Assembly: GCF_023078835.1 (NCBI RefSeq)
Contig: NZ_CP090898.1
Span: 784,045 to 808,044 of the forward strand
DNA from: Synechococcus sp. NB0720_010
GTDB lineage: Bacteria; Cyanobacteriota; Cyanobacteriia; PCC-6307; Cyanobiaceae
Length of the DNA stretch: 24,000 nt
Direction of reading: 5' to 3'
Made by a program: the position numbers and the translations under genes
The notes under the pieces: generated by a model
Databases searched by the model: none
Told to the model about the DNA's origin: nothing
The model's input: only the letters and a program-made list of their open reading frames with translations
Shown: piece by piece, positions 1 to 20,566 of the stretch
How the letters are laid out: the number at the start of each line of letters is the position of its first letter
Numbering within the stretch: the first letter of the stretch is position 1

Positions 1-1
1 A

Positions 2-3000: not shown

Positions 3001-5104
3001 TCCTATCACTACCATAGGAGAAGAATATGTTCTATTCAAGGAAAATGTGAGCCGGGAAGATATTGCACTAGTGCTCATCAACTCACGGAAGTTCCAACCG
3101 AAAGCAATTTCATTGGATGGGAGCAATCCTGCAACAATCACGCGCGCCGACACAGCTATCTACTCAGCAACAGACAAGGATGGAGACTCCTATATCGGAT
3201 CAATGGATGGCTCATATATTCTTAATGGCGAGACGTACTACTACAACACTGAAAACCCGACGGCCAATCGGTTCACTATCACCATTCCCGACGATTACGA
3301 TGAAAATCTGGCCGAAGCTGGTACTCAGATGTCCTATTTGATGAATTACACAGCCGGCGAAATCGACTTCGACAAAAACACCGGAGCATTTACCTTTACC
3401 GCCTCAAGCGGTATAAGCCCGGACAAAGTTGGATACGACCCTGACTCAGTTGACACTGTCCTGAAATATGTCTCAGAAGCAGACCTGCTGAAGTATGGGG
3501 CAACTGCTGGAGATGGAGAAGTTGGTGAAAGAGAGTTCAGCTGGAACAAAACCAATGAGAACCCAAATATCTTCGGCGATGGCGAACCGCTGATTGATTT
3601 AGACGGCAACATCATTACCAAAGCCGGCTGGTACGACTTCACACGCCGTGTCAATGAATTTGGAGTCGCGACAGGCGATGGTGGAGAATACCTCTACGCC
3701 AACTTCTCCAATGGTGTGTGGACTGCAAGTACAGACATCAATCAACTAGGTGAGATCGGAACACTTAGAGTTATTGGTCTAAGGCTTCGTTTTACTGACA
3801 ATAGGTTCGGCGACAAGGATCCAACTGCTGGGACAATTATTGACCCCTTCGGTACCGCAAAAGCAACCGGTAGCGAAGCCGAAGTCCTAGCTGGACGTGC
3901 AGCGATTTCCAATCCGGTCAAAGCCTCAACGATTACACAACAGGTAACACAGGTAACAACGACTCAGACAGTTTCTATCCCTTACAAACCAGAACTTGTT
4001 GATCTGAAGCCTGATTCTTCAGGTGTTGGATATGACGATCCAGGCAATGCACCAGGCCTTGGAATTGATGCCCGTGGAGAAGATCTCGATGCCATGTCTG
4101 TCGGAGATGGTGTCGGCACGGGCTATGGAGAAGGTTCAGGTCAAGGCGTCAACAACTCCAGTGGCTCCGGCGAGGAAGCCATGACCCTCACCCAGGCCCT
4201 CACCGCCTTTGCAGAGGGGGAGGGAGAAGGAAACTCCGAGTCCAACAAAGGTCAAAACGCTGAAGGCCAAGGCGCCGGTACTGGTGGTGAAGCTGCCCTT
4301 GGAGAAGACCAATCACCAAAAACCCAACGCAAGCGCGGTCTACTTCTGCAGCCCCTGGTCGATCAACTCGCCAGCGGCGCCGATGAACTCAAGACCAGCT
4401 CCACCCTGCTCAAGAACCTCAGCGAGGGTTCGGTCATGGGCACCAACCTGCTCGATGCCCTCGCCCTCGGTGCCGGCGTCCTCTACGTGCTCTATGCACC
4501 CAAGGCCGTTGAAACCGGTAAAAAGGGCTTCCGCGGATTGGTCAACCGCGTCATGAAGCGGGGTGGTGTCAATGCCGTCATTCCCGAGCAGAACCTACTC
4601 TCGGTCTTCGTCATGAAGATGCCCAATGGCGGCGAGCGCCTGATGGCCACCCGCGTCGGCTTGGGCGGCATGGAAGTGTTAGCCCAGCAGGATCTGCCGG
4701 CAGATGTCCGTGTCGATGCCGCAGGCAGCCAGACCCAGATCGACTACGCCATGAAGCAGTTGATCGCCAAGCTGGGCGCCCCCAATGCCGACCTGCTGCT
4801 GCTTGGTCCCAAGCTCAAGGGCCAAGCCGCGCTACTCAAGAACATGGCCAAGCAGACCCAACTGCTGAATACCCAGGACCTCACGAGCAGCCTCTCCTCC
4901 TGCAGCGCCACCGAACTGGAGGCCCTGCAGAACTGGCTCAACAAACCCTCCAGCACCCTGCCGGAGACCAGCCCGGTCTACGGCCAGATGCTGCAGCAGA
5001 TCACCGCTTATGCCGGTGCCATGCCGGCAGAGCAGGCCAACATGGCCGGCCTGATTGAGCTCAGCGTCGCCATGGGCTGGAGCCAAACCGGCAAAGCGGC
5101 CTAG
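2..5104 (+). CDS. Giant cell-surface repeat protein, 5'-partial (VCBS/cadherin-like modules, long non-repetitive region, Gly/Glu/Ser linker, hydrophobic segment, unique ~200-aa C-terminal domain)
   Basis: The reading frame is open from nt 2 to the TAG at 5102-5104. My hand translation of nt 2-52 finds no stop. The residues before the track's GTG at 53 (ELEIFEVPGLQIE) match the lead-in of the second repeat copy (ISAEIPGLSIN), so the gene continues upstream of the window. The first ~520 aa contain beta-type modules ending in GTNDDP / AVNDAPE / GTDSTP / AADNDSP plus the motif DGSWSFDP.NAAY, typical of VCBS/cadherin-like repeats in giant T1SS-type adhesins. I saw no GGxGxD RTX nonapeptide repeats. 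Confidence 0.85.
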   Translation, partial: TIFAFKSAQINELEIFEVPGLQIEGDGSWSFDPGNAAYNSLPTGEELTIQVTYSATDADGLVATNSFTITVEGTNDDPYLTDEDSLTELLDNAIEDQGRNGNPYTIDLDLLTSPFEDYDYAGGTSESLEVKGLNAYKQNGDVAGTFERIGNTFVFSPFKDVEGLIKIEYIVTDNNGGGVTAETTLFIEAVNDAPELGALPDGGLVMKNDAQEDTPFTFTDVDLIKGFIDPDNAADGLADLSLNLEITAIPSSPNGTIQVASYSGQLTSSDVDASGTPDFSLISAEIPGLSINSDGSWSFDPTNAAYDSIEKDDSQTITVSYSVTDDQGATDQNSFTINLTGTDSTPIATFTSDLEGPIQAIGSYIFSPDENFNGTTQVDFEISDNAGAKTFGSKFVVIAADNDSPTISLPNNSYDASVVAGTAQFLSTNAFGYQDIEGDPIQGVRIEIPNASVGLLQSSSKAFSVEGSQSLPTEKIGEKTYVTVSRDILVNNRLYFEAKNTAIGLSSTLSFMVNDGTNWSTEATIKLSVTGAPKSAAEAFKEAQYKVNFEEILGDDRYWAIKPVVAAAGLTNDEAITALKKAPSYANYAANEVEYLNDIGWFNIVYLNEEGLREETSLDDLSAVDAISLANSPLDTIFNSEEKEFISAQLNDSQNKTIESTFSAIANVTIEGFSNAVNSDGLSENVITSAVDKIRLIASGSFSTDEQYLQFSASSVALRATIASLKSGSLLSSISDQDPQIFNLLDGVKESKLAGIAQSLGSLPEGVSYTPDQLTRLSKLADKAASVGNTEALKLATRTIVDGKKYSSLADGDLDDLPADEKARALTLKDEYLSIQALKVQAGLSNLSVNTAINSGAITSLDNDDAKRLVLSELQSKSLGVSENSNELASVSNSAAYLNSLDSLVIAATKIEDSGKAAEILELAQTLDNVALSFADNPEELDRVVALQEQLEEDFKYSVTFNEDEIRAHYAKNWVTISSISGNVITLGEGDNALKDANGTPITTIGEEYVLFKENVSREDIALVLINSRKFQPKAISLDGSNPATITRADTAIYSATDKDGDSYIGSMDGSYILNGETYYYNTENPTANRFTITIPDDYDENLAEAGTQMSYLMNYTAGEIDFDKNTGAFTFTASSGISPDKVGYDPDSVDTVLKYVSEADLLKYGATAGDGEVGEREFSWNKTNENPNIFGDGEPLIDLDGNIITKAGWYDFTRRVNEFGVATGDGGEYLYANFSNGVWTASTDINQLGEIGTLRVIGLRLRFTDNRFGDKDPTAGTIIDPFGTAKATGSEAEVLAGRAAISNPVKASTITQQVTQVTTTQTVSIPYKPELVDLKPDSSGVGYDDPGNAPGLGIDARGEDLDAMSVGDGVGTGYGEGSGQGVNNSSGSGEEAMTLTQALTAFAEGEGEGNSESNKGQNAEGQGAGTGGEAALGEDQSPKTQRKRGLLLQPLVDQLASGADELKTSSTLLKNLSEGSVMGTNLLDALALGAGVLYVLYAPKAVETGKKGFRGLVNRVMKRGGVNAVIPEQNLLSVFVMKMPNGGERLMATRVGLGGMEVLAQQDLPADVRVDAAGSQTQIDYAMKQLIAKLGAPNADLLLLGPKLKGQAALLKNMAKQTQLLNTQDLTSSLSSCSATELEALQNWLNKPSSTLPETSPVYGQMLQQITAYAGAMPAEQANMAGLIELSVAMGWSQTGKAA
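74..235 (+). repeat. VCBS-like 54-aa module, copy 1 (GDGSWSFDPGNAAYNSL...FTITVEGTNDDP)
   Basis: This 162-nt in-frame module aligns with copy 2 at 878-1039 at 29 of 54 residues by my hand alignment. The DNA is diverged at many synonymous positions. Confidence 0.7.
878..1039 (+). repeat. VCBS-like 54-aa module, copy 2 (SDGSWSFDPTNAAYDSI...FTINLTGTDSTP)
   Basis: Same length (162 nt) and same motif order as copy 1. It is preceded by EIPGLSIN, compared with EVPGLQIE before copy 1. Confidence 0.7.
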
Positions 5105-5113: not shown

Positions 5114-5133
5114 GGGGGCTGCACCCAGCCCCC
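5114..5133. terminator. GC-rich hairpin between convergent genes (candidate bidirectional intrinsic terminator)
   Basis: gggggctg (5114-5121) / loop cacc / cagccccc (5126-5133) forms a perfect 8-bp stem. It lies in the 38-nt gap between the giant-gene stop (5104) and the stop of the minus-strand HExxH gene (5143). There is no clear U-tract on either side, so its function as a terminator is not certain. Confidence 0.5.
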
Positions 5134-5142: not shown

Positions 5143-5631
5143 TTAGCGGCAGCGTTCTTTTAAGGCCGCAATGATCAGCGGGAATGCCTTGGGGTTGCCC
5201 TGCATCGCGAATGCCTCACGCTCCACGTCGAACTTGGCGTGGGCATAGTTGCGGTAGAGGATTCCAGCCACCTCGCGGTCAACGGCATTCACCATCGACG
5301 TTGGCCAGCCGATGGTCTCCAGCTTCCCTGTCTTGCAGCCCTGGGCTCCATGGACGGCCTCATGAATCAAGGTTTGGCGGCCAATGCCCAAGTCCACTGC
5401 AATCGGTGCCACCCAAATGATCTTTTTGCGGGAGTTCGTTGCGCCATAGGCCCCCTGAATCGGCGGCTTTTCAAAACGCACTTGATAACCCGCCTGCTGC
5501 AAGGCCTTCACCAAGGGCAGCCAATCAGCCGGCCATTGGGGGGCCGCACTAGCACGGAGGGCCGCAGCACCACACAACAAAGCCAACGCTCCAAATGAGC
5601 AGGCCAGACGCCGAAATGGAATGATTGTCAT
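5143..5631 (-). CDS. Secreted small HExxH-motif protein (putative zinc metallopeptidase-like), last gene of the minus-strand string
   Basis: The 162-aa protein has an N-terminal signal-peptide-like region (MTIIPFRRLACSFGALALLCGAAALRASA|AP, with an AxA site). It contains an HEAVH motif in LIHEAVHGAQGC and a downstream acidic stretch (DVEREAF) that could supply a third ligand. GGAG lies 11 nt upstream of the ATG (5643-5646 on the minus strand). I did not recognise a family beyond the motif. Confidence 0.6.
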   Translation of the reverse strand: MTIIPFRRLACSFGALALLCGAAALRASAAPQWPADWLPLVKALQQAGYQVRFEKPPIQGAYGATNSRKKIIWVAPIAVDLGIGRQTLIHEAVHGAQGCKTGKLETIGWPTSMVNAVDREVAGILYRNYAHAKFDVEREAFAMQGNPKAFPLIIAALKERCR

Positions 5632-5646
5632 GCGGTCATCAGCTCC

Positions 5647-6321
5647 CTACTGAACCGTGAGGTTGCGGCCGGAATTGCCCCAGAAATAGATCGGGTCGTC
5701 CTTGTACCAAGGCTCCCAACCGATCGGCACCTTGTACTCCAGCGCCTTGTTCTTGATGGCTCGGTAGGCCTCAAAGCCATCGTTCTCCAGCACAACAAAC
5801 ACCGCTTTTTTCTCCTTGGCCAAACGCTGCATCGTTTGATCCAGCCAACCTTCTTTCTTTTTGAGATCAGCCGCCAGGACCGTCGGCGGACCATTGCGGC
5901 GAATCAGGCCATTGGCATGGCTCACGCTCATGCCGATCGGTCCGACTTGGGCCTCGCGCTTCCAGCCATCCAATTCCCGATCACAAGCTTCCTTCTCTGG
6001 CGGCAGCAGTTGTTCGCAGCGGTTGACTTCACCCGCCCGCTGCCGGTCGAGCTTCACCATCTGCTCCACCGCAGGTTGCAAATCCCACAGACCCTCCTTC
6101 GCTGCTTGCAGCAGCACGAAGTTGCGGGAGCTTTTTTGCTGCATTGGCGCCTGAATGTTCAGGGCACTCGAGGTGGCGAAGATGCCGGTCAAAGAACCAA
6201 TCAGCGCCATCACCCCCACCACGTTGGAGAGGATGTCCATCAGGCCGTCACTGCTGTCGCTAGTAACTCCTCCGCCACCACGGCGGCTACGGCGTCTCAG
6301 CAGGAGGGAACGCTGACCCAT
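5647..6321 (-). CDS. ExbD/TolR-like single-pass membrane protein, paralog 2 (224 aa)
   Basis: The N-terminus is basic (RRRSRRGGGG). Asp residues sit immediately before one TM helix (DGLMDILSNVVGVMALIGSLTGIF). The periplasmic domain's C-terminal part (AVFVVLENDGFEAYRAIKNKALEYKVPIGWEP) parallels paralog 1 (YLVIGVRPSAFRDFESIRSKAEARRLSIGYEP). Its start overlaps the upstream stop (TAATG at 6319-6323), implying translational coupling. Confidence 0.65.
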   Translation of the reverse strand: MGQRSLLLRRRSRRGGGGVTSDSSDGLMDILSNVVGVMALIGSLTGIFATSSALNIQAPMQQKSSRNFVLLQAAKEGLWDLQPAVEQMVKLDRQRAGEVNRCEQLLPPEKEACDRELDGWKREAQVGPIGMSVSHANGLIRRNGPPTVLAADLKKKEGWLDQTMQRLAKEKKAVFVVLENDGFEAYRAIKNKALEYKVPIGWEPWYKDDPIYFWGNSGRNLTVQ

Positions 6322-6791
6322 TAACCGGCTCCCTCTACTGCGGGCATCCCTACCGGCAGCTGCACTTTCAAGCCAGCCTCGAGGGGCTCATAGCCAATCG
6401 AGAGGCGTCGAGCCTCGGCCTTGGAGCGGATGGACTCAAAGTCGCGGAAGGCACTGGGACGCACGCCGATCACCAAGTACTGGGGCTTGGAGTTCTTGGC
6501 GATGGCATCGAGGAACTGCTCGAGACCCTGGTCTTTGAGATTCCAAGTCCGGCGCTGTCCTTGGCCGATCACCTCGACCTTGCCGCCGCCCTCACAAAGG
6601 ATGTAATTCGCTTCTTTGCCTTTTCCTTCTCCCCCCGCGGGGAGCAATTGAATCGCCTGAACGCCGGGCTTGATCTGCAGCGCGCAGATCACAATCAGCA
6701 GGGACTGCACGCCAATCGTGGCGGCCATGATGTTGAGGAAGGAGAAGAGATCCACTCCCTCGTCATTCTTTTTTCCCCTGCGGCGCCCCAT
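6321..6791 (-). CDS. ExbD/TolR-like biopolymer-transport protein, paralog 1 (156 aa)
   Basis: The layout matches E. coli ExbD. There is a basic N-terminus (MGRRRGKKNDEG), then an Asp preceding the TM (VDLFSFLNIMAATIGVQSLLIVI, compared with ExbD DINVTPFIDVMLVLLIIFMV), then a ~110-aa periplasmic alpha/beta domain. There is no OmpA/MotB-type peptidoglycan-binding region. The ATG lies 3 nt after the MotA-like stop. Confidence 0.7.
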   Translation of the reverse strand: MGRRRGKKNDEGVDLFSFLNIMAATIGVQSLLIVICALQIKPGVQAIQLLPAGGEGKGKEANYILCEGGGKVEVIGQGQRRTWNLKDQGLEQFLDAIAKNSKPQYLVIGVRPSAFRDFESIRSKAEARRLSIGYEPLEAGLKVQLPVGMPAVEGAG

Positions 6792-6794
6792 GAA

Positions 6795-8117
6795 TCAACC
6801 CCGGCCAAACCAGCGCCGGCGGGCCGGTTCCAGCCGGGCCACGCTGGCGTTCAGGGTTTCAATCGAGCGGCGCAGTTCCACCAGCGCCTGCACCTGATCC
6901 ACCCGCTCCGCCTCTGTGTAGCTGCCGGTGGACAGCCGCTCGAGTCGGCTCAACACAGGTTCGAGTGCCCGCAGGGATTGATTGAGCTCCTGGGAGAGAC
7001 CATCCATGCTGCCCCGGATCACATCCGCTTGGTCCTGCAGGCTCAGCCGCGCCTCGGCCACGCCCTCAACCGAATCACGTACAAGATTGGTGAGCGGGGA
7101 GAGCTTCTCCAGCGTCGCCTCCGTCAGCTGATTCGCGTAGGCCTGGGCCGGCTCCACAAGAACCGAAGGATCCGGCAGGTGCTTCTCAAACGCATCACTG
7201 ATCAACGCACCCAGGTCTTCTGAGGCGAGCCCGGTCAGCTGCTCAATCGCTTCAGCTTGGGGTTGCTGCTTCGTCCCCGTTGCTTCGGGGCCATCGGGGA
7301 TCTCGCCATCGCCTGTGGGGCTGAGGGCCATCACGGCTTCGCGCACTTCGCCATCGATTTGGCTGAGCAGGCGATCCTCCAGGCGCTCACAGGCATTGAG
7401 CGGGAAGGTGAAGATCACCGAGACCACCAGAGCCAAATAGGTGGTGTCGAATGCCGTACCCAGACCCGAGGTCACCTTGGTCAAGCCATTCTTCAAACCA
7501 TCGACGTTGTCGGCATTGCTGAGCACCGCATCAAAGGAACCAACGGCCGAGGACATCCCGATCACGGTGCCGATGAAGCCCAGCAACGGAATCGCCCAGA
7601 GCAGCACTTTCGGCAGACTGAAGCTGGATTGACTCGAGAGCTCATAGAGCTCCACGTCGGAATCGGCCGAGCGCTCCAACTGGAACGAGGAACCGGTACT
7701 GCGCCAAACATCCAGCAGCCGCAGCAAACGCTTGCCGACCAGCGAGGCCGAGCGCTCCGCTTGGTTGGTCAAGGCATCGAGGTCGCCACTACGGATCGCC
7801 TGGGCAATCGAGAGATCAAAGGCCAGATAGGCCTTCTTCTCGCGTTGAAGGATCCGCCATTTATTGATGATGAAGGCCAGCAACATCCCGCCCATCGCCA
7901 GCACGAAGACCTGGGTGGGGCCCCGTTGATGCAGAAAATCGTGGAAGGGCATCCCCTGGGGCGTGGCGATGGCCCAGAGCAAGAAGCCCCCAATCCCGCC
8001 CGGCACCAGCCAGCGCAGCAGCTTGGGATCCAGGTCATTGCCCAGGCCCAGGCTGACCGTGGGTGTGGCGGCAACGCTGGTGTTGGTTTGGGTTAAGGGC
8101 GGGAAATTAGCGACCAC
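6795..8117 (-). CDS. MotA/ExbB/TolQ-family ion-channel protein with extended C-terminal helical tail (440 aa)
   Basis: Four hydrophobic helices fall at about aa 36-52, 68-86, 170-189 and 219-240, with an ~83-aa loop between TM2 and TM3 (a MotA-like topology). The family core PLLGFIGTVIGM...GLGTAFDTTYLALVVSVIFTFPLN resembles ExbB GLLGTVWGIM...GIAEALLATAIGLVAAIP. Residues ~265-440 are an extra Leu/Glu/Arg/Gln-rich helical region. The start is a GTG (8115-8117), and the next Met would delete TM1. Confidence 0.8.
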   Translation of the reverse strand: MVANFPPLTQTNTSVAATPTVSLGLGNDLDPKLLRWLVPGGIGGFLLWAIATPQGMPFHDFLHQRGPTQVFVLAMGGMLLAFIINKWRILQREKKAYLAFDLSIAQAIRSGDLDALTNQAERSASLVGKRLLRLLDVWRSTGSSFQLERSADSDVELYELSSQSSFSLPKVLLWAIPLLGFIGTVIGMSSAVGSFDAVLSNADNVDGLKNGLTKVTSGLGTAFDTTYLALVVSVIFTFPLNACERLEDRLLSQIDGEVREAVMALSPTGDGEIPDGPEATGTKQQPQAEAIEQLTGLASEDLGALISDAFEKHLPDPSVLVEPAQAYANQLTEATLEKLSPLTNLVRDSVEGVAEARLSLQDQADVIRGSMDGLSQELNQSLRALEPVLSRLERLSTGSYTEAERVDQVQALVELRRSIETLNASVARLEPARRRWFGRG

Positions 8118-8160
8118 GAGCGGGGACTCAAAGGTTCGGGGAATTCAGGTCAAAGACGGG

Positions 8161-8487
8161 TCAGGCAGAGCGGGTGTTGTCCCACTCCTGCCACTCGACC
8201 TCCACATCACCCACACCAGCGCTGGCCGGGGGCGGGATGCGGGTCAGCAGATCGTTCGGCAAGCCCAGGCGTTGGAACACGGCCTTGCGCTGCTCAACGG
8301 GCATTGCTGAGAAGGAGCGGACGACGTCGCGCACCTTGTGCTCGTTGTACACCAGGCCCATCAACTCCTCCTGGTCCTTGGCCTCGAGGGCCTGGAACCA
8401 GCGCAGAAATTCATCAACGCGGCTGTTGAGATCAGTGGAACCAGTGGTCATGGGAGAGGCGGATGAGGTGAGAGAGGAGTGCTGCAC
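8161..8487 (-). CDS. Small hypothetical protein between the HlyD and MotA-like genes (96-108 aa)
   Basis: The ORF is co-oriented and fills the gap between 8529 and 8117. The track start is a GTG at 8487; an ATG at 8451 (MTTGSTDLN...) is an alternative. It has no signal peptide or TM and I recognised no family. Coding status is supported mainly by position and non-degenerate composition. Confidence 0.45.
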   Translation of the reverse strand: MQHSSLTSSASPMTTGSTDLNSRVDEFLRWFQALEAKDQEELMGLVYNEHKVRDVVRSFSAMPVEQRKAVFQRLGLPNDLLTRIPPPASAGVGDVEVEWQEWDNTRSA

Positions 8488-8528
8488 AGAGCGCTAAGGG
8501 CCGTGCACCAAAAAGGGGAGCGGCTGGG

Positions 8529-9704
8529 TCATTTCGATGAGCGGATGCTGCGCAGGGAATCGAAGGCCTTCTGCACCGCATCGGTGAGCAGGGTGATCAC
8601 CCGCTTGTCGCGCAGGACCAAGTTGGCCTGAACGCTCTGGCCTGCACTGATCTCGTAGCGATCGCGCCCCTTGGTGAGGTAATCGCGATCGAGACTGATG
8701 TAGGCCGGGAAGCGGGGCTGGGGGTTCTGCTGGTCCGGCTCCAGCGGCAAGGTGCCAACGGATTTGAGCTTCCCATCGATCGACCCGAACTGGGTGTAGG
8801 GGAAAGCATCGACGCGGACTTGGGCCGCCATTCCCTTGTTCAAGAAGCCCACATCGCGGTTGGTCACATAGACCTTCGCCTCAAGAATCCCGCCCGGAAC
8901 CACCTTCACCAAGGTCTCGCCAGCCGCCGCGGCGTAGCCCGGGCTTGAGGGGACCAAGCCATAGACCACGCCATCAAGGGGGGCCCGCAGCACCTCTTTG
9001 TTCTGGGTGTCCTGAACCTCCACCAGCTGACGCTCCAGATCCGCCAGCTCCCGCAAAGACTCCTGCTTCATCTTCAGCAGCTGGGCTTGCACCTCCTGGA
9101 GGTTGGCCCGGGCCTGGGCAATCTCCGATTCCAACTGCTCAACCCGGTTGCGCTGCTGAAGCACCTGCATCCGCTGGATCCCCCCTTCACGCGCCAAGGG
9201 AACGATGTTGTTGTAGATCTCCTTTTCAGTGGAGAGGGCACGGCCCAAACCATTCATCCGCTCCCGCAAACTCTGCTCGCGGGACTGGATCGAGCGGCTC
9301 TCTTCGTTAAAGCGGGTGGTCTCGAGTTTGAGCTGTTTCTCGAGGGTCTCCGCCCGCTTTTTGGAGACCTCCGCATCGAGGCGAATCAGCGCTTCACCAG
9401 AGCTGACCTTCTGGCCTTCCTTCACCAGGATGTCCTTCACGACCCCCGCGAATGGCGCCTTAAGCGGGCGTTCCGCACCGAGGGGCTGCAGCTCCCCTTG
9501 GGCCAGCACCACCTCATCAATCTTGGCGAAGCAGGCGAAGACGAAACCAAAGGAGGCGCTGCCAATGATCGTCCAGGCCAAGGCGCGGCTCCAGACCGGT
9601 GCCGGACGCAGACGGACCTCCTGAGGGTCCATCGGCCTGACCACCAGGGCCGACATATTGGCCTTCACAAGATTGGACTTCGAGGGGGGCTTCTGATCCA
9701 TCAC
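8529..9704 (-). CDS. HlyD-family membrane fusion / periplasmic adaptor protein of a type I secretion system
   Basis: The 391-aa protein has a short cytoplasmic N-terminus and one TM (WTIIGSASFGFVFACFA). A lipoyl-like segment follows (VLAQGELQPLG...VKDILVKEGQKVSSGEALIRLD), then a long coiled coil (aa ~110-235), a second lipoyl half and a beta-barrel. It directly abuts the ABC gene stop. The start is GTG at 9704 or ATG at 9701. Confidence 0.9.
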   Translation of the reverse strand: MMDQKPPSKSNLVKANMSALVVRPMDPQEVRLRPAPVWSRALAWTIIGSASFGFVFACFAKIDEVVLAQGELQPLGAERPLKAPFAGVVKDILVKEGQKVSSGEALIRLDAEVSKKRAETLEKQLKLETTRFNEESRSIQSREQSLRERMNGLGRALSTEKEIYNNIVPLAREGGIQRMQVLQQRNRVEQLESEIAQARANLQEVQAQLLKMKQESLRELADLERQLVEVQDTQNKEVLRAPLDGVVYGLVPSSPGYAAAAGETLVKVVPGGILEAKVYVTNRDVGFLNKGMAAQVRVDAFPYTQFGSIDGKLKSVGTLPLEPDQQNPQPRFPAYISLDRDYLTKGRDRYEISAGQSVQANLVLRDKRVITLLTDAVQKAFDSLRSIRSSK

Positions 9705-12700
9705 TCAAACCTCCTGCTGGTGATACAACGTGGCATAACGACCATCGAGAGCCATCAACTCTTCATGGGTTCCCTGCTCAACAAGGGCTCCTTGATCCAT
9801 CACCAAGATGTGATCGGCGGCTTTCAAAGAGGCCAGGCGGTGGGTAATAAAGAAGACCGTGCTGCCCTTGTAGAGCTCCATCAAATTGGCCGTCAGACGC
9901 CGCTCGGTGTCGACATCCAATGCGCTGGTGGCCTCGTCCAGCACCAGAAGGCGCGGACGCCGCAGGATCATCCGAGCAATGGCCAAGCGTTGACGCTGGC
10001 CGCCGCTTAGGCCTGCACCCCGCTCACCTACGGAGCTGCTGTAGCCCGACGGCATCGCCTGGACAAAATCGTGAGCGCAAGCCACCTGGGCGGCCAGAAC
10101 CACCTCTTCGAAGGAGGCATCGGGACGGGTCAGGGCAATGTTGGAGAGGATCGTGCCGTCAAACAGCAGGCTGTCCTGCGGCACCACACCGATTTGAGCA
10201 CGCAGGGAATAGAGGTCCACCTTGCTGATGTCGTTGCCATCAATGCGAATCAGGCCCTCTTCCGGTTCATACAAACGGGTGAGCAATTTGAGCATTGTGC
10301 TCTTGCCCGAGCCCGAGCTGCCGACGACCCCCACAAAGGAGCCGGGGGGAATGTCGCAACTGACATTGCTGAGCTGAAGTTTGCCCTGCTCGGCAAAGCG
10401 GAAGCTGACGCCGGAGTACTCAACCTGGCCGACGATCGGCGGGATCGGTGGTTTCTGCTCTCCAGTGATTTCCAGCTCCTGGGGGTGATCGACGATGTCC
10501 GCCAGGCGCTCCAGCGACAGGGCGGTTTCCTGGAAGTTCTGCCAGAGGTTGGCCATCCGCAGCAGCGGGCTGGTGACATAGCCCGCCAGGATCCGGAAGG
10601 CGATCAGCTGACCCAGGGTCATCTGACCTTTGAGCACCAGCGAGGCACCGATCCAGAGGACGATCAGACCGGAGAGTTGCTCCAGGAACTGACTGGCCGA
10701 TCCGGCTGCCGTGCTGGTGACGACGTTGCGGAAGCCCGACTGGATCTGTCCGCCGTAGAGCTGTTGCCAGCGCCAACGGCTATGGATCTCCATGCTTTGG
10801 CCCTTGATCGTCTCCATCCCGCCGAGGGTTTCCACCAGATGGCTCTGGACCCGTGAATTGGCTTCGGCCTGCTCCCGCAGCTGCTTACGGATGATGGGTG
10901 CCGTCAGGGCGGTTAAGCCGACAAACAGCGGCACCACCGCCAGGGCCCAGAAGGTGAGTTGCACGGAATAGAGCAACATCACCGCGATGTAGATCACCGC
11001 GAAGACCGCATCCAAGATCACCGTCAGGGCCGTGCCGGTAAGGAAGCGTCGGATCTTCTCCAGTTCATTCAGGCGGCTGCTGACTTCACCCACCGGGCGG
11101 TCGGCGAAATAGCCCAGGGGCAGCCGCAACAGGTGATCGATGATCGTCGATCCCAGGCTGATGTCGATTCGATTGGTGGTGTCGGAGAAGAGATAGGTGC
11201 GCAGGGACGAGAGCACCGCCTGGGCCAAAGCCATCGCCACCAGCAGCGTGCCCAGCACGTTCAAGGTGCTGACGTTGCCCTGGCTGATCACCGCATCAAT
11301 GATCTGCTGAATCAGCAGCGGGTTGAGCAAGCCAAACAGCTGCACAAAAAAGCTGGCGATCAGCACCTGAACCAGCACGCCCTTGTGCTGCTTGAGAGCC
11401 GGCAGGAACCAAGCCAGACCAAAGCGCTTTTTGGGGGTCTTGTGGCTGCGCTCAATGCAGAGCACCGGCAGGTTGCCCTCCTCATCGCGCCCCTCCAGGG
11501 CACTGATCGCTACCGGGCCCTGGCCCGAGGCGGGATCACTGATCAGGACTTGCCCGGCCATGTCGCTGGCCCAGATCACCACCGGACCACTGCCGCCCAT
11601 CACCAAGGCTGGAAGCTGCAAGCGCGGGATCTGGGCGTCATTCACGCTCAGCTGCGAAGCGCGCAGCCCCATCAAATCGGCAATGGCCGCCAGCTGCAGC
11701 AGGCCAATGCCCGCTCCGGTGGTGTCCCGCTGGATCTGGTCTTCGAGGATCCGGGTCAGCACGTCCTTGCGGAAGGGCAGATCGAAGTAACGCGCCAGCA
11801 TCCGCAGCGCCGCCATCGGCCCCTCCACAGGCCCCTCGCCGCTGAGATGGGGGAAGGTGCCGTCATCCCCCAGGCGGCCGTACCAGTCCTCAAGAGCCTC
11901 CTGTTGACGCTCCACAGCGACGATCGCGGCGGAGCTTTCCTGCCAGTCGGGCTCCAGGAGTTCAGCTTCAGTGGGCTCGGCCTCTTCCTCGCCGGCCTCC
12001 GGGGCCAGCACCATCACCGGTGGCCGCTCCATCGGCGGCGTGGCGCCCCCCTTGGCCAGCAAACGGGCGGGCAGCTTGCCCTTCACCGTCAGCTTCAGCG
12101 GGCCCAGGAGTTCTTCACCGGGGTTCGCCCCGGCCACATTGCTGCTGCTGACGAGCCAGGGCCCCCAGCTGGAGCCGAATTGATGCTCACCCGGGGGCAA
12201 CAGCAACACCTGCTGCTCACCCGCCGCCTCTTCCAGTTGATTGCTAGCCCAGTCACGAAGGTCCCGGCGCTCGGGCAGCCGCGGCGCTGGGCTCGAAGAC
12301 GCGACGGCGAACAACTCCTCGAGACTGGGCTGGGCCAAGGCCAACTGCAGTGGCGGGTGCTCCATCACCACCTGCAGGAAGACCGCCTGGGGCATCAGCC
12401 AGAGCTGGCTCGGCTGGGAGGCGGCCAAAGCCTGGCCCGTCACACCCCGCAAGAGTCCGATGTCGCCTGCTGTGTCACCCGGGGAAAGCCGGCGCAGCGT
12501 GAAAGGAACGTCCTGCTCATCGAGCGCCAACAGGCGCATCTGCCCCTTGGCCAGCAGGGCCACACCCGGCGGCAGAGCGTTGTAGTCGTACAGCTTCTGC
12601 CCCGGCCTCAGCTGGAGCGCTTGCAAGGACTCAGCAATGCGCGCCTGAGAGCTCTTCGGCAGCTTGGAGAAGGGCTCCCAGCTACTGACCAACCGCAATG

Positions 12701-12716
12701 CAAGGGTCAGCTGCAT
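9705..12716 (-). CDS. Three-part ABC exporter: N-terminal cNMP-binding-like domain, C39-like (apparently non-catalytic) domain, 6-TM ABC transporter with NBD (1003 aa)
   Basis: The NBD motifs are Walker A GVVGSSGSGKST, signature LSGGQRQRLAIAR and Walker B LLVLDEATSALD. The TMD spans about aa 440-720. Aa ~10-125 look like a CAP-effector/cNMP fold (LRPGQKLYDY...GDTAGDIGLLRGVTGQALAAS...LWLM). Aa ~290-425 resemble a C39 peptidase-like domain (GPMAALRMLARYFDLPF...LPALV...VVIW...VLISDP). Confidence 0.9.
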   Translation of the reverse strand: MQLTLALRLVSSWEPFSKLPKSSQARIAESLQALQLRPGQKLYDYNALPPGVALLAKGQMRLLALDEQDVPFTLRRLSPGDTAGDIGLLRGVTGQALAASQPSQLWLMPQAVFLQVVMEHPPLQLALAQPSLEELFAVASSSPAPRLPERRDLRDWASNQLEEAAGEQQVLLLPPGEHQFGSSWGPWLVSSSNVAGANPGEELLGPLKLTVKGKLPARLLAKGGATPPMERPPVMVLAPEAGEEEAEPTEAELLEPDWQESSAAIVAVERQQEALEDWYGRLGDDGTFPHLSGEGPVEGPMAALRMLARYFDLPFRKDVLTRILEDQIQRDTTGAGIGLLQLAAIADLMGLRASQLSVNDAQIPRLQLPALVMGGSGPVVIWASDMAGQVLISDPASGQGPVAISALEGRDEEGNLPVLCIERSHKTPKKRFGLAWFLPALKQHKGVLVQVLIASFFVQLFGLLNPLLIQQIIDAVISQGNVSTLNVLGTLLVAMALAQAVLSSLRTYLFSDTTNRIDISLGSTIIDHLLRLPLGYFADRPVGEVSSRLNELEKIRRFLTGTALTVILDAVFAVIYIAVMLLYSVQLTFWALAVVPLFVGLTALTAPIIRKQLREQAEANSRVQSHLVETLGGMETIKGQSMEIHSRWRWQQLYGGQIQSGFRNVVTSTAAGSASQFLEQLSGLIVLWIGASLVLKGQMTLGQLIAFRILAGYVTSPLLRMANLWQNFQETALSLERLADIVDHPQELEITGEQKPPIPPIVGQVEYSGVSFRFAEQGKLQLSNVSCDIPPGSFVGVVGSSGSGKSTMLKLLTRLYEPEEGLIRIDGNDISKVDLYSLRAQIGVVPQDSLLFDGTILSNIALTRPDASFEEVVLAAQVACAHDFVQAMPSGYSSSVGERGAGLSGGQRQRLAIARMILRRPRLLVLDEATSALDVDTERRLTANLMELYKGSTVFFITHRLASLKAADHILVMDQGALVEQGTHEELMALDGRYATLYHQQEV

Positions 12717-12845
12717 TCAGTGGCTGAGTACTCCGAAAAAACTATCAGAACGTGGGGCTACACCTGGCCGCCTGGGCTACCAACAGCAGACGATCTCAGC
12801 GATCTGCACGAAGCGAAATCATGCAGGTTTTGCATAAGTCCCCGA

Positions 12846-13535
12846 TTACTTGGCCGGCGTAGCGCGCATCTGCTCCTGGAGCCACTGATCACCGAGCTCC
12901 AAAGCCAGGTCCCGGCGGTAGCCCTGGTTGAACACCGCTGGCTGCAGCTCATCCAGGCGAAGCAGCACCCAGCCCCCCTCCGCCGGACGCGGAGGCCAGA
13001 TGTGGCCGGGCTTACTCACCCGCAGCAACTCACTGAGAGCCTCAGGGAGCTGGCCCAAGGGCGTCGGTCCCTGCTTCCCCGTTGGCAGTTGCCCCGTCAC
13101 GCCAGGCAAGGTGCACCAGAGCTGCTCAAAACTGTTTTCCCGCTCTGAGAGCTGAAGAAAGAGCTCCTGGGCCATCGCCTCGTCCTCGACCCAGATCAGG
13201 GAATAGACCACCTGATCGAGTTGGCTCTTGCGCTTCAAAAACAAAGTGGAGGCCTGAGCTCGGAAGCGCTTCTCGCAGAGAAACTGCCAGCGCAGTTGCC
13301 GCTCAGCTAAGGCTTTGAGGTCCTCTTCGGAGAGGCCGTAGGACTGAATCCAGCGTTGGGCCTCGGCCTGGGTCTTCAATCCCTGGCGCTGCAGCCAGAT
13401 GGGGATTGCCTGCTCCTGTTGCTCCGGAGTGAGGCCAGGCTCCTTGGCCAGCAAGGCATCGCGAGTGAGCTCCCGCTGGACCAAAGCGCCATAGCCCCAA
13501 GCCGCCAGCTGCTGCTGCGACTTTTGATCGATCAC
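12846..13535 (-). CDS. Parvulin (PpiC)-like domain protein, probably degenerate PPIase/chaperone (229 aa)
   Basis: The C-terminal ~100 aa follow the parvulin pattern (VVYSLIWVEDEAMAQELFLQLSE..NSFEQL....GP.PLGQLPEALSELLRVSKPGHIWPP...GGWVLLRLDE). The N-terminal half is helical, SurA/PrsA-like. The GTG start at 13535 is uncertain. This is a pattern match by eye only. Confidence 0.45.
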   Translation of the reverse strand: MIDQKSQQQLAAWGYGALVQRELTRDALLAKEPGLTPEQQEQAIPIWLQRQGLKTQAEAQRWIQSYGLSEEDLKALAERQLRWQFLCEKRFRAQASTLFLKRKSQLDQVVYSLIWVEDEAMAQELFLQLSERENSFEQLWCTLPGVTGQLPTGKQGPTPLGQLPEALSELLRVSKPGHIWPPRPAEGGWVLLRLDELQPAVFNQGYRRDLALELGDQWLQEQMRATPAK

Positions 13536-13566: not shown

Positions 13567-14559
13567 TTAAGCCGCCAGATAGGCGTGCATCTCCTCGGAG
13601 CGGCGGCGCAGCTCTTCGTGGGCCTTGCGCTCGAGGCTGCGGGCACGGTCGCGGCTCATCTCAAGCGCACGGGCAATGGAGCTCAGGCTCATGGGCTCCT
13701 CAACATCGATGCCGTAGCGCATCTTCAGCACGCGGCCCTGCAGGTCCGGCAGCTGGTCCAAGAGTCCCCGCATGTCCATGCGCAGGCACTCCCCATCCAC
13801 CAGCTCTGACGGCTGGGTGCCATCGGCGGCCAGCAGATCCAGCAGCTCCGTGTCATCGCCGTCGCCCACCTTCGTCTCCAGGCTCACGGGCTGGCGCGCG
13901 CGGCAGAGCAGGTCCTTCACCTCCTCCTCAGGAAGGTCCACAAACTCGGCCAGCTCCGTCACCGTCGGCGTGCGGCCCAGCTCCTGGCTCAGCTCACGCT
14001 GCCCCTTCTTGAGCTTGTTCAGCGTCTCGGTGATGTGGATCGGCAGCCGGATCGTTCGGCTCTTCTCAGCAATCGCCCGCGTGATCCCCTGGCGGATCCA
14101 CCAGTAGGCATAAGTCGAAAACTTGTAGCCCCGGGTCGGGTCGAACTTTTCAACACCCCGCACCAAGCCAATCGTTCCCTCCTGGATCAGGTCCAGAAGC
14201 TCCATGTTCCGCTTGGTGTACTTCTTCGCCACGCTCACCACCAACCTCAAGTTGGCGGCCACCATCCGCTCCTTGGCCCGCTGACCACTCCTCAGGCGCT
14301 TCTTGAGCTGAACCTGCGTCAGACCCGCTTCCTTCGCCAGCACCGCAGGCGAAGGCTTCTCCACACCCTCACGGCTCGCGAGTTCCTGCTCCAGCTCCTC
14401 CAGCGCCACCAGCTCTTGGACCTGGCGACCCAAGGTGATCTCCTGCTCGTGGGTCAGCAGCGGCACCCGGCCGATATCCCGCAGATACGAGCGCACCAGG
14501 TCCGTTCCACCGGCCAGCGCGGTGTCGCGGACAGCACGAAGGATCGGAACAGAGGGCAT
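13567..14559 (-). CDS. Sigma-70 family RNA polymerase sigma factor (group-2-like, 330 aa)
   Basis: Region 1.2/2 reads YLRDIGRVPLLTHEQEITLGRQVQ and GTIGLVRGVEKFDPTRGYKFSTYAYWWIRQGITRAI. Region 3 reads IRLPIHITETLNKLKK. Region 4 reads LKMRYGIDVEEPMSLSSIARALEMSRDRARSLERKAHEEL. I trimmed the track ORF (13567-15030) to the ATG at 14559 (cat at 14557-14559). The upstream 157 aa are Ser/Arg/Pro-rich and antisense to the pseudouridine synthase gene. Confidence 0.9.
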   Translation of the reverse strand: MPSVPILRAVRDTALAGGTDLVRSYLRDIGRVPLLTHEQEITLGRQVQELVALEELEQELASREGVEKPSPAVLAKEAGLTQVQLKKRLRSGQRAKERMVAANLRLVVSVAKKYTKRNMELLDLIQEGTIGLVRGVEKFDPTRGYKFSTYAYWWIRQGITRAIAEKSRTIRLPIHITETLNKLKKGQRELSQELGRTPTVTELAEFVDLPEEEVKDLLCRARQPVSLETKVGDGDDTELLDLLAADGTQPSELVDGECLRMDMRGLLDQLPDLQGRVLKMRYGIDVEEPMSLSSIARALEMSRDRARSLERKAHEELRRRSEEMHAYLAA

Positions 14560-14572
14560 CAGCGAAAACGAA

Positions 14573-14659: not shown

Positions 14660-15367
14660 ATGGCCGCCGAACGACTGCAAAAGCTGATTGCCCAGGCGGG
14701 GGTCTGCTCCAGGCGCCGCGCCGAGGAGCTGCTCAGGGACGGCCGCGTCACGGTCAATGGCCAGCGGGCCCAGCTGGGGGACAAGGCCGATCCCAACAGC
14801 GATGCCATCAGCCTCGATGGCCAGCCCCTCCGCGCCTCCGCCGAACCGATGGTGCTGCTGCTGAACAAACCCGCCGGGGTCCTCAGCAGTTGCTTTGACC
14901 CCGAAGGCCGGCCGATCGTGCTCGACCTGCTGCCGCCCGAGCTGGCCCGGGGCCAAGGACTGCACCCGGTCGGGCGCCTGGACTTTGAGAGCCGCGGCGC
15001 CCTGCTGCTCAGCAACGACGGGGCCCTCACCCTCCAGCTGACCCATCCGCGCTATGCCCACAGCAAGACCTACCGGGTCTGGGTGCAGGGACAACCCAGC
15101 CAACGGGTGCTGGATCAATGGGCCCGCGGCGTCAGTCTCGATGGCCTGCCCTCCCAACCGGTGCAGGTCAGAAGCCTCAGCAGCGAACAGGGCCGGACCC
15201 TGCTGGAGCTGGTCATGGGCGAAGGGAAAAACCGTCAGATCCGCCGCACGGCCGAGCTTCTGGGCCACCACGTCCTCGATCTGCAGCGCATCGCCATCGG
15301 CCCGATTCATCTCGGAGCACTTCCAGAGGGTCGCTGGAGACGAATAAACGACCAAGAATGGGAATAA
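14660..15367 (+). CDS. RsuA/RluB-family pseudouridine synthase with N-terminal S4 RNA-binding domain (235 aa)
   Basis: The S4 motif reads ERLQKLIAQAGVCSRRRAEELLRDGRVTVNG. The catalytic motif reads HPVGRLDFESRGALLLSNDG, followed by KTYRVWV and GKNRQIRR. Confidence 0.9.
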   Translation: MAAERLQKLIAQAGVCSRRRAEELLRDGRVTVNGQRAQLGDKADPNSDAISLDGQPLRASAEPMVLLLNKPAGVLSSCFDPEGRPIVLDLLPPELARGQGLHPVGRLDFESRGALLLSNDGALTLQLTHPRYAHSKTYRVWVQGQPSQRVLDQWARGVSLDGLPSQPVQVRSLSSEQGRTLLELVMGEGKNRQIRRTAELLGHHVLDLQRIAIGPIHLGALPEGRWRRINDQEWE

Positions 15368-15384
15368 GAAGCTGATCGGCCGGA

Positions 15385-16284
15385 ATGCCTCGGTTCGCCC
15401 TGTCCATCCCAGGTCTGGCCCGTTTGATGGGCCGGGGTAACAGCGGCGGCGATGCCAGCCCTGACAGCCCTGAGGTGGAAGACCCCTTGCTGGAGGTCGG
15501 CCGGCGGCTCAAGAGCGAACGGGAATCCCGGGGCCTGAACCTGCGGCAAATGGCCCTGGAGACCAAGATCAGCACCCCCGTGCTCGAGGCGCTGGAGCGG
15601 GGTTGGCGCGATCGCCTGCCGGAGGGGGCCTACCTCAAGTCGATGCTGCCGCTGCTGGAGGAGTACCTCAACCTGCCCGGCGGAAGCCTGGCCGCAGCAC
15701 TCCCACCGGAGAGCGAGAACGCCGCGGCCAACGCCAATCGTCTGCAGCGCTTCACCCCGGGCTCGATCGATGTCTTCAGCAGCTGGCAGGGAACGGTTCT
15801 CTACGGGGCCGTCACCCTGGGGCTGATCTACGGCCTGAACCTGCAGCAGCGCCAACTTGCCGCGGCCAACCTGCTGACCCTCAATCCGATCCCTGCCCTC
15901 AAACCGAGCGAGCAGGCCAAGGCGGTCCAAGCCGGAGACAACCTGCTGGTGGCCTATCCCGATCTACGCCCCCTCGAGCGCGCCCAGCGCGGCAGCAGTC
16001 AAAGCGCCCTGCGCCAACCACTACCGGCCCCCGAAGGCCCGGGGGTTCTGGAGCTGAACCTCAGTCAGGCCAGTTCCCTCAACCTCAGCAGTGATGGCGG
16101 ACAACGCAGCCAGCTGAGCGGCAGCAAGGGACAGCTGGTGCTGCAGCTGCAGCCGCCCCTGCGCCTCTCCGTCTCACCGGCCCCGAAAACCGGCGAGGTG
16201 ATCTGGAACGGCAAGCCCCTGGCGGCCCTGCCCAAACAGCCAGAGCAGTTTCAAGTGCCGGCTCCTCAGCCGCCGCGCCCGTAG
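15385..16284 (+). CDS. RodZ-like helix-turn-helix membrane protein (HTH, single TM, DUF4115-like C-terminus; 299 aa)
   Basis: The HTH reads VGRRLKSERESRGLNLRQMALETKISTPVLEALERGWRDRLPEGAYLKSML, resembling the RodZ N-terminus. The TM reads VLYGAVTLGLIYGLNL, followed by a Pro-rich linker and a beta-rich C-terminus. An alternative start at Met15 is possible. The 3' end overlaps malQ by 19 nt (convergent). Confidence 0.7.
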   Translation: MPRFALSIPGLARLMGRGNSGGDASPDSPEVEDPLLEVGRRLKSERESRGLNLRQMALETKISTPVLEALERGWRDRLPEGAYLKSMLPLLEEYLNLPGGSLAAALPPESENAAANANRLQRFTPGSIDVFSSWQGTVLYGAVTLGLIYGLNLQQRQLAAANLLTLNPIPALKPSEQAKAVQAGDNLLVAYPDLRPLERAQRGSSQSALRQPLPAPEGPGVLELNLSQASSLNLSSDGGQRSQLSGSKGQLVLQLQPPLRLSVSPAPKTGEVIWNGKPLAALPKQPEQFQVPAPQPPRP

Positions 16285-18982: not shown

Positions 18983-19063
18983 CCTATCTGGCGTGAGCGC
19001 AACAACGGCGTCAGCCCCAGGCGACCTACGTCAAAGTGGTGCGTCTTTGAACGCCGCCCGTCC

Positions 19064-20002
19064 ATGGCCACCGCTGGGAATCGCCCGCAGCGCAGTGCTC
19101 GCCAACGGGCCGCGATTCGCCTCCTGGCCGCCGGCGCGGGGATCGTCGCGGGCCTGGGTGCCCTGAGCCTGGTCTGGCCCCTGCAGGACCACTCCGCCAA
19201 AGAAGACGGTCCTCCCAGCGCCGAGGCCCTCGCCGAACAACCGAGCCAGCCCCTGAACGTGCTGCTGATTGGCTCCGATGCCGACCGTCAGGGGGCCATT
19301 TCCAACGGAGCCGCCCCGGCTGGCCCCGCCAACAGCGATGCCCTGCTGCTGGTGCATGTCGATCCCAACGGCCCAGTTCAGGTGATGAACCTTCCGATCG
19401 AAGGGGCCGTTCGCTTACCCGGTGACGCCACGCCGGTGCCCCTCGGCAGCCTCTACCGCCGCGGGGGGGCAGCCCTCGTGGCCAGCGCCAGCGCGGAACT
19501 GCTGGGTCTGGCCGATGGAGCGCCCGAGCGTTATGTGGTCATCCCCCGCACGGCCCTGCGGGAGCTGGTGGATGGGATGGGACGGCTGGAGCTGGCGCCG
19601 GATCGGGCGATGGCCTACACGGATCAAAGCCAGAAGCTCACCATCGCCCTGCAGGGGGGCCTGCAGCAGCTCAATGGCACCCAGGTGGAGCAGTACCTGC
19701 GCTTCAGGGACCCGATCAATGGTGAGGAGCGCCGGCGTGATCGCCAAGAGCAGGCCATCGCCACCCTGCTGCGGCAGATGGGTCAGGCCGCCCAGCTCAA
19801 GCGCCTGCCCTCCCTGATTGCCGAACTGCGGCCCCAGGTGGACACGAACCTCACGCCCCAGGAGGTGCTGAGCCTGATGGCGGTGGCCCTGCAGCCGGGG
19901 CAATCCGTGCAGTTCCAGAGCCTCAGCCTGCGGCCGGCCCTCAATGCAAAGGCATCGATGCGGGAGCTGGAGGAGCAGCGGCTGCAACCGCGCTGGCCGT
20001 AA
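19064..20002 (+). CDS. LytR-CpsA-Psr (LCP) family cell-envelope protein (312 aa)
   Basis: The N-terminal TM anchor reads AIRLLAAGAGIVAGLGALSLVW. The LCP core reads LNVLLIGSDADR......NSDALLLVHVDPNG.VQVMNLPIEGAVRLPG, then YVVIPRTALRELVDGMGRLEL and LNGTQVEQYLRFRD. Confidence 0.85.
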   Translation: MATAGNRPQRSARQRAAIRLLAAGAGIVAGLGALSLVWPLQDHSAKEDGPPSAEALAEQPSQPLNVLLIGSDADRQGAISNGAAPAGPANSDALLLVHVDPNGPVQVMNLPIEGAVRLPGDATPVPLGSLYRRGGAALVASASAELLGLADGAPERYVVIPRTALRELVDGMGRLELAPDRAMAYTDQSQKLTIALQGGLQQLNGTQVEQYLRFRDPINGEERRRDRQEQAIATLLRQMGQAAQLKRLPSLIAELRPQVDTNLTPQEVLSLMAVALQPGQSVQFQSLSLRPALNAKASMRELEEQRLQPRWP

Positions 20003-20486: not shown

Positions 20487-20566
20487 GAAGGGATCGGGCT
20501 CCAGGGTGCTGACCGCGTGCCGGGCGGCTTCTACGATCAGGGTTCTACCGTCCAGCCAGCGGCCCC

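Follow-up and report, generated by a model that had tools for sequence, protein, structure and literature searches.

The genome islands of picocyanobacteria are marked by giant surface proteins, which are thought to shape interactions with grazers, phages and other cells. How such proteins can be placed under ion-motive control is best illustrated by Salmonella pathogenicity island 4 (SPI-4), in which siiA and siiB share one operon with the genes for a type I secretion system (T1SS), SiiCDF, and for the 595-kDa adhesin SiiE. SiiAB is a MotAB-like proton channel with an essential Asp, and it controls the surface retention and release of SiiE in a manner that depends on the proton-motive force. 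In Synechocystis sp. PCC 6803, the unit sll0477-sll0479 is iron-induced and has been discussed as a Ton-type energiser; its two hypothetical genes were later named exbD3/exbD4. A 2025 paper on von Willebrand factor A (vWA) force transducers and TolQ-like motors raises the idea that a large protein may dock into the motor pentamer with an Asp-bearing helix of its own. Here, a related arrangement is described in a 24-kb stretch of the genome of Synechococcus sp. NB0720_010 (contig NZ_CP090898.1, positions 784,045 to 808,044), hereafter the window. A string of eight genes encodes the core of a type I secretion system together with a MotA/ExbB-family protein (the A subunit) and two candidate partner subunits (D1 and D2), and it converges on the gene of a giant surface protein. 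With moderate confidence, we read this locus as a conserved, uncharacterised picocyanobacterial variant of a motor-assisted type I secretion/giant-adhesin system of the SPI-4 kind. The variant is new in its parts, and its principle is already known from SiiAB. An initial annotation of this DNA had known of no described T1SS operon that carries a stator unit beside its probable giant substrate; SPI-4, with SiiAB, SiiCDF and SiiE, is a direct precedent. No description of the present picocyanobacterial locus was found in a limited literature search.

The eight open reading frames (ORFs) all lie on the minus strand, at 12846-13535, 9705-12716, 8529-9704, 8161-8487, 6795-8117, 6321-6791, 5647-6321 and 5143-5631. 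From 13535 to 5143, consecutive ORFs are spaced by 129, 0, 41, 43, 3, -1 and 15 nt. The gap between the A gene and the D1 gene is thus 3 nt and D1 overlaps D2 by 1 nt; the order of A gene before B gene is universal among such ion-driven motors. A scan of the string gave no terminator-like or promoter-like site above chance, and the eight genes would be co-transcribed. Between the TAG of the giant-protein gene (5102-5104) and the stop codon of the last string gene (5143-5145), a GC-rich hairpin, GGGGGCTG-CACC-CAGCCCCC, with an 8-bp stem and a 4-nt loop can be read in the sequence (5114-5133). It was not called as an intrinsic terminator in a terminator scan because the T-tract is missing. The co-oriented ORFs, their gaps and the hairpin had been listed in the initial annotation, and all coordinates and spacings were reproduced.

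The string is conserved as a whole. The full eight-gene order, together with the C-terminal module of the giant protein, is found in synteny at about 20 loci of picocyanobacteria, where motor identity falls as low as 42%. These loci come from Vulcanococcus/Cyanobium metagenome-assembled genomes (MAGs), marine Synechococcus MIT S9452, the single-amplified genome AG-670-A05 and a deeper clade; a single genome scan with a one-protein query yielded five close loci. Wherever the contig is long enough, every locus with an A subunit at least 41% identical carries the string and a convergent gene that ends in the module. Gene order and gene families are conserved, and the string co-varies with this module. 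In picocyanobacteria, the A-D1-D2 trio has never been seen apart from the ABC/HlyD pair and the module, and it has a fixed place in the string. Every related picocyanobacterial locus whose flanks are long enough shows this gene order, and the string is not a chance assembly. The adjacency to the ABC/HlyD pair and to a giant cadherin-repeat gene, which had been noted from this one genome, is accordingly conserved. The most divergent syntenic locus is L098 (JGI 3300045413; labels of this form denote homologous loci that were fetched for comparison). Here, the ABC protein is 81% and the HlyD protein 78% identical, the motor proteins are 42-51% identical and the module is 34% identical; the motor and the substrate end evolve much faster than the pump. 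At about 60 distant loci (26-36% A-subunit identity), the trio is kept and no ABC/HlyD pair is nearby. The neighbourhoods of these distant trios are highly variable, and no recurrent neighbour was found. Since the distant trios stand without secretion genes, the fusion to secretion genes is specific to picocyanobacteria and the trio is an independent module.

The secretion core consists of two adjoining genes with a gap of 0 nt. The first (9705-12716) encodes a 1003-aa ATP-binding cassette (ABC) exporter with an N-terminal domain resembling cyclic nucleotide-binding (cNMP-binding) domains, followed by C39-like, transmembrane and ATPase domains. In Pfam searches it scored 176 bits for PF00664, 114 bits for PF00005, 29.1 bits for PF00027 and 23.2 bits for PF03412. 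Its Walker A (GSSGSGKS), signature (LSGGQ) and Walker B (LLVLDE) motifs were confirmed as first read. Neither Cys nor His is present at the catalytic positions of the C39-like domain, which is thus probably inactive. Loss of these catalytic residues is typical of exporters for large, non-cleaved substrates. The second gene (8529-9704) encodes a 391-aa HlyD-type membrane-fusion protein, or periplasmic adaptor, with 70 bits for HlyD_3 (PF13437) and 177 bits for TIGR01843 (NCBIfam), the latter under the cut-off of 208.65. The initial assignment of the pair to type I secretion is borne out by these matches and by 696 bits for TIGR01846 (type_I_sec_HlyB) on the ABC protein, just under the curated cut-off of 725.55. 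Its remark that the window holds no TolC-like factor, TonB or TonB-dependent receptor also agrees with the family searches, which gave none.

Next to this core, the presumed motor A subunit is a 440-aa protein (6795-8117). It matches PF01618 (MotA_ExbB) over residues 143-254 at 34.7 bits, above the gathering cut-off of 22.9, and the same family has a precomputed match on 120/120 of its homologs among the matches listed. On its sequence, the protein is a true member of the MotA/ExbB family, as the initial annotation had proposed from the core motifs PLLGFIGTVIGM and GLGTAFDTTYLALVVSV, both of which were found. The best PDB sequence match is ZorA (8vvn, E 4e-4). PADLOC gave a weak ZorA1 match (E 1e-8) as well as ZorA3, and the NCBIfam ZorA model NF033915 scored 20.3 bits against a cut-off of 100. 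In an alignment of 26 family sequences at 24-67% identity, T184 and T225/T226 are invariant; these residues are the probable equivalents of T148/T181 in the ion path of ExbB. The same alignment shows a coiled-coil-like C-terminal tail of about 175 aa that ends in a conserved PRRxxLxE motif. When a profile of the family was searched against the PDB, the tail matched coiled-coil proteins to the extent that these matches swamped the search. The family is large, with 2732 cluster representatives at E <= 0.001.

The two genes that follow encode D1 (156 aa, 6321-6791) and D2 (224 aa, 5647-6321), single-pass proteins that share a basic N-terminus, one membrane helix and an alpha/beta domain. They are paralogous by alignment and hhalign (99.4%). 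D2 shows 100% identity to a protein of Synechococcus sp. NB0720_010, and reads of this strain assemble into the same locus. D2 is the candidate Asp-bearing ExbD/TolR-like subunit by its position and by Asp29, which lies in the membrane helix, is invariant in three alignments and is present in 33/33 motif-placed sequences (6/39 escaped the motif). In a comparison with E. coli ExbD and TolR, Asp29 was aligned on ExbD D25 and TolR D23, at an hhalign probability of 11%. In D1 of this lineage, the residue at the canonical Asp position is Asn22; other lineages have Ser or Asp there (N 13, D 8 and S 29 in the D1 family). The initial annotation had placed an Asp at the membrane segment of two ExbD/TolR-like proteins. 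An Asp does stand beside the single hydrophobic segment in both; at the canonical position, it is conserved in D2 and replaced by Asn in D1, and neither the family searches with both proteins nor a structure search with the D2 model gave an ExbD match. Some signal did emerge between the D1 family and E. coli ExbD plus TolR (hhalign 52%, E 1.4e-4, 116 columns), and weak Pfam ExbD matches were seen in 2/18 D1-family members (best E 0.0066). No canonical ExbD/TolR genes for a better profile were found among the fetched loci. The AlphaFold model of D2 shows a confident periplasmic alpha/beta domain. Position, architecture and the Asp make up the main case for D1 and D2 as B-type motor subunits, which is probable but unproven.

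The string converges on the 3' part of a gene for a giant cadherin/VCBS-repeat surface protein (1-5104, plus strand). Translated from nt 2, this ORF is stop-free to the left edge of the window, and the protein is therefore longer than 1683 aa; on the NB0720_010 read assembly, it has at least 1755 aa. Its domains include Cadherin_5 and Big_9 (Pfam), and VCBS, tandem-95 and a weak T1SS-143 repeat (NCBIfam). The genome paper of this strain lists a 10,749-aa protein with cadherin-like, Big and VCBS domains, and from this matching description the gene is probably LY254_04120. The last ~330 aa (4040-5101, plus strand) form a module that was delimited by alignment across loci. It comprises a Gly/Ser/Glu-rich linker, a basic patch, an invariant hydrophobic helix and a folded alpha/beta plus helical domain of about 170 aa; residues 181-354 of the module were modelled by AlphaFold at pLDDT (predicted local distance difference test) values of 86-95. 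The module is 46-78% identical in orthologous loci, and the remaining sequence of the giant protein varies. All 62 homologs of the module occur in picocyanobacterium-like sequences, none exceeds 612 aa and none is named SwmB. The helix (4433-4501, plus strand), with the pattern GxNLLDALxLGxGxLYxLYxP and an invariant Asp, was recognised by alignment and Kyte-Doolittle hydropathy. It is the sole segment in 1683 aa that scores at least 1.5, and the charge around it is 0 before and +6 after. It is a candidate membrane anchor that could meet the motor, or else part of an unusual secretion signal. A possible third paralog of D1 and D2 was sought in the module and rejected at the sequence level (hhalign <1%); the order of strands and helices does look alike.

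The composition of the gene also changes at this point. GC content steps from 47% to about 60% at nt 4050-4100, exactly at the start of the module, which suggests a mosaic gene in which exchangeable low-GC repeat passengers are carried on a fixed, host-like 3' end. In the MIT S9452 locus (L006, CP138956.1, 13051-21338), the module is part of a 1,334-aa protein, and a separate gene for a 21,365-aa protein lies 127 nt upstream on the same strand. The module and the truly giant protein can therefore be encoded by separate genes.

Three further genes of the string encode proteins whose families are less clear. The last gene (5143-5631) encodes a 162-aa exported protein, a putative small periplasmic metallopeptidase with a hydrophobic, signal-like N-terminal segment and an HExxH motif (HEAVH). 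In its nine orthologs, HEAVH, E137/E139 and a Cys pair are invariant. PF20573, a putative metallopeptidase family, is weakly matched by 5/9 of them (best E 0.0018), and the window protein itself has no Pfam match. The ORF at 8161-8487 encodes a small, soluble, acidic protein, probably of 96 aa from an internal Met; it is conserved in the string, with orthologs 55-95% identical in all loci, lengths of 90-98 aa according to the gene callers, and no family match in Pfam or NCBIfam. The first gene (12846-13535) encodes a 229-aa cytoplasmic protein related to PpiC/rotamase, with 21.8 bits for Rotamase_2 (under the cut-off of 27) and E 9e-10 for TIGR04500 (far below the cut-off). This gene keeps its position in all loci with enough upstream sequence.

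How might these parts work together? In the proposed mechanism, the HlyB-type ABC protein and the HlyD adaptor would export the convergently encoded giant cadherin-repeat protein, with an outer-membrane channel supplied from a gene elsewhere. Within the same transcription unit, the A subunit, with its coiled-coil tail in the cytoplasm, and D1 and D2 would form an ion-driven motor of the MotA/ExbB/TolQ/ZorA superfamily, presumably in a 5:2 assembly, in which D2, and not D1, would carry the ion-binding Asp. Driven by ion-motive force, this motor would do mechanical work on a physically coupled partner, either the secretion complex or the giant protein. This work would control the surface retention, tension, display or release of the giant protein, whereas its ATP-driven translocation would not require the motor. 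The giant protein may be cut free by the exported HExxH protein, in a role like that of LapG.

Several observations weigh against this reading. The likeness of D1 and D2 to ExbD/TolR is weakly supported. Neither protein has a Pfam, NCBIfam or PADLOC match, a family-profile search of the PDB gave nothing significant, and Foldseek with the D2 model against the PDB returned no ExbD, TolR or MotB (best E 0.014, to unrelated folds). With a different alignment, the hhalign probability between the D1 family and ExbD plus TolR fell to 6% over 55 columns. On the side of secretion, no OEP/TolC family match to an outer-membrane factor was obtained among the ORFs tested in the window, and the gene for the outer-membrane channel may be elsewhere in the genome. 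The giant protein shows no repeats-in-toxin (RTX, GGxGxD) repeats, and the hydrophobic, Asp-bearing character of its helix is unlike a classical T1SS signal. In addition, the motor trio stands alone in many bacteria, often on mobile elements or in defence islands, and it can therefore work without a T1SS.

The main rival, which we consider unlikely, takes the trio for an autonomous Zorya-like envelope sensor or anti-phage/anti-grazer module that was captured beside the secretion genes, where it would act independently or recruit the giant protein as a sensor or effector. Among specific models, ZorA matches the A subunit best (PDB 8vvn, PADLOC ZorA1 and ZorA3), and the C-terminal coiled-coil tail is ZorA-like. 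Stand-alone trios occur by CRISPR/CARF-HEPN and viperin genes (pANACY.03) and by SNF2/HKD helicase, SLATT and methylase genes (NIES-2481 p1); others are on elements with integrase, primase-helicase and resolvase, and the neighbourhoods of distant trios are highly variable. However, the NCBIfam ZorA score is 20 against a cut-off of 100, and the window has no OmpA-type ZorB and no ZorC/D/E. Unlike shuffling defence cargo, the picocyanobacterial trio always accompanies the ABC/HlyD pair and the module, in a fixed place and at 42-100% identity. A second rival, in which the motor energises secretion itself because a very long substrate needs ion-motive force in addition to ATP to cross the envelope, is judged quite unlikely. 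The tight packing of the genes in one string and the joint conservation of ABC and HlyD with the motor would fit it, and early steps of HlyA secretion need the proton-motive force. However, the studied precedent, SiiAB, is credited with the surface retention and release of SiiE and not with its export; SiiAB is reportedly dispensable for secretion itself. Most T1SS for giant adhesins have no such motor, and in L098 the motor (42-51%) diverges much faster than ABC (81%) and HlyD (78%).

Could the position of the trio be meaningless? It would be if the trio were an ordinary ExbB-ExbD-type energiser of nutrient uptake, for example of iron. The iron-induced Synechocystis unit of an ExbB-like gene and two further genes does have the same three-gene layout. 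The strict synteny with the T1SS and the giant-protein module over deep divergence makes this explanation very unlikely, as do the failure to find TonB or a TonB-dependent receptor in the window and the long tail of the A subunit, which is absent from ExbB. Another explanation is that the motor moves the giant surface protein and powers non-flagellar motility. For the swimming of marine Synechococcus, whose motor has yet to be identified, published models postulate motors of the MotAB type; swimming requires a giant surface protein, and the giant protein described here has a conserved, possibly membrane-embedded, Asp-bearing helix. Yet NB0720_010 is an estuarine strain of subcluster 5.2, clade CB5, whereas both swimming and swmA/swmB are restricted to clade III. 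Like this strain, most carriers of the locus fall outside clade III; it is common in lineages from fresh water and estuaries that are not known to swim, and 0/62 of the proteins that share the module are named SwmB or are longer than 612 aa. The link to swimming that the initial annotation had drawn thus found no support, and a role in motility is regarded as very unlikely. The supplementary material of Dore et al. contains no mention of MotA/ExbB.

A bolder and rather unlikely reading makes the giant protein itself a moving part of the motor. Its invariant Asp-bearing C-terminal helix, which has the same D-x-[LM]-x4-G-V spacing as the helices of D1 and D2, would then bind in or on the pentamer of MotA-like subunits, either next to D1 or in its stead. 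If this were true, a filament of over 10,000 residues that passes through a type I secretion channel would be pulled, rotated or put under tension directly by ion flow. Some of the most abundant phototrophs would then possess an ion-driven cell-surface machine of a new kind, with possible roles in surface movement, in shedding, or in defence against grazers and phages.

The stand-alone trios are of interest in their own right. On the Anabaena cylindrica plasmid pANACY.03 (L100, 6959-9538), a MotA-like gene with genes of the 153-aa and 231/236-aa types lies in a defence island, after a type III-B CRISPR module with a CARF-HEPN gene and before viperin, with a deoxynucleoside kinase also near. 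On p1 of Microcystis NIES-2481 (L101, 6956-9556), the trio follows genes for an SNF2/HKD helicase, SLATT and a methylase, and NUDIX and HNH genes are also near. It is possible that these two trios are an unrecognised Zorya-like system. The closest trios without secretion genes (33-34% identity), in two metagenome loci (L022, 3710-11299, and L023, 4968-7598), are cargo of integrative mobile elements, with genes for a phage-type integrase, a primase-helicase (PriCT-2/AAA_25) and a resolvase on their flanks. On a 103-kb contig (L099, Logan SRR18577679, 10001-12195), a MotA-like gene is accompanied by genes for proteins of 118 aa and 159 aa; around them are dozens of tiny co-oriented ORFs, two genes for IS605 OrfB and one for EF-Ts. 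This plasmid- or phage-like element had no match in a phage collection search. In a locus of the Planctomycetes-Verrucomicrobia-Chlamydiae (PVC) type (L085, 7815-12967), a BatA/vWA protein (604 aa) is encoded directly upstream of a long-type trio (452, 270 and 366 aa), which gives the locus a likeness to the vWA force-transducer/TolQ-like motor clusters of 2025. A mobile, defence-island-associated motor trio is a lead worth a study of its own. The widespread, unannotated family of B-type subunits, in heterologous pairs with a single Asp, is a further lead.

Upstream of the string, the window is less distinctive. A co-oriented gene for a sigma-70-family protein with regions 1.2, 2, 3 and 4 (13567-14562, minus strand) lies 31 nt from the first string gene; it could be a dedicated regulator of the string or a mere neighbour. 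The same gene precedes the string in a Vulcanococcus MAG (L008) and does not in L011 or MIT S9452. The remainder (14660-23912) is ordinary chromosome, with genes for a pseudouridine synthase, an HTH_25 protein, a 4-alpha-glucanotransferase, an FrhB-like protein, a LytR_cpsA_psr protein, phosphoribosyl pyrophosphate (PRPP) synthetase and a GHL10 protein, and the end of an aminopeptidase N-like gene. Because the strings in L008 and L011 have these same neighbours, the chromosomal site is conserved in this subcluster. An Rfam search of the window gave no matches.

Among the described systems with which the locus can be compared, Zorya shares the ZorA-like A subunit (the closest PDB and PADLOC match), the long C-terminal coiled-coil tail and the occurrence of stand-alone relatives in defence islands. 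It differs in that the tail has about 500 aa in ZorA and about 175 aa here, with scores far under the family cut-offs; in that the present motor is fixed inside a secretion operon in this lineage; and in its partners, since Pfam and PADLOC searches of the window gave no OmpA-type ZorB and none of the ZorC/D/E/F/G effectors. The vWA force-transducer/TolQ-like motor clusters described in 2025 likewise have an A gene followed by two non-identical B-type genes. In contrast, they are found in the PVC group, Proteobacteria and Bacteroidetes, use vWA proteins and have no secretion system or giant adhesin. The Synechocystis unit sll0477-sll0478-sll0479, an ExbB-like gene with two hypothetical genes in one transcription unit, is likened to the present trio by layout only and may belong to the same family; no T1SS or giant protein has been reported beside it. 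The Lap system (the LapBCE T1SS with LapA, LapG and LapD) offers a different parallel, namely a giant adhesin that is exported by a T1SS and whose surface retention is regulated, with the involvement of a protease in the periplasm and of a nucleotide second messenger. The protease LapG is of the cysteine type, whereas the present candidate is an HExxH protein. LapD is a separate receptor for cyclic di-GMP, whereas here a nucleotide-binding-like domain is fused to the ABC exporter, and Lap has no motor.

The closest likeness is to SPI-4 (compared here by gene content), in which genes for a MotA/ExbB-like and a MotB/ExbD-like inner-membrane protein are clustered with those for an ABC exporter, a HlyD-type adaptor and a giant repetitive adhesin. 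SiiA has a MotB/OmpA-type peptidoglycan-binding domain, whereas D1 and D2 have neither such a domain nor a PDB match; searches of Pfam, the PDB and Foldseek gave no OmpA/MotB family and no peptidoglycan-binding chain for them. The present cluster has no gene for an outer-membrane channel. Its motor has two heterologous B-type genes, with the Asp in one only, and a ZorA-like tail on the A subunit. Beyond the SPI-4 set, there are a PpiC-like gene and genes for the 96-aa and HExxH proteins, and the ABC protein has a cNMP-binding-like domain. Its giant protein ends in a conserved hydrophobic helix and a folded domain instead of a short signal. The locus thus offers concrete, conserved and testable machinery for the export, holding and release of one class of giant surface proteins. 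It extends the one known motor-assisted T1SS, that of SiiAB, to a distant phylum with a different motor lineage, which suggests that ion-motive control of giant adhesins has evolved more than once.

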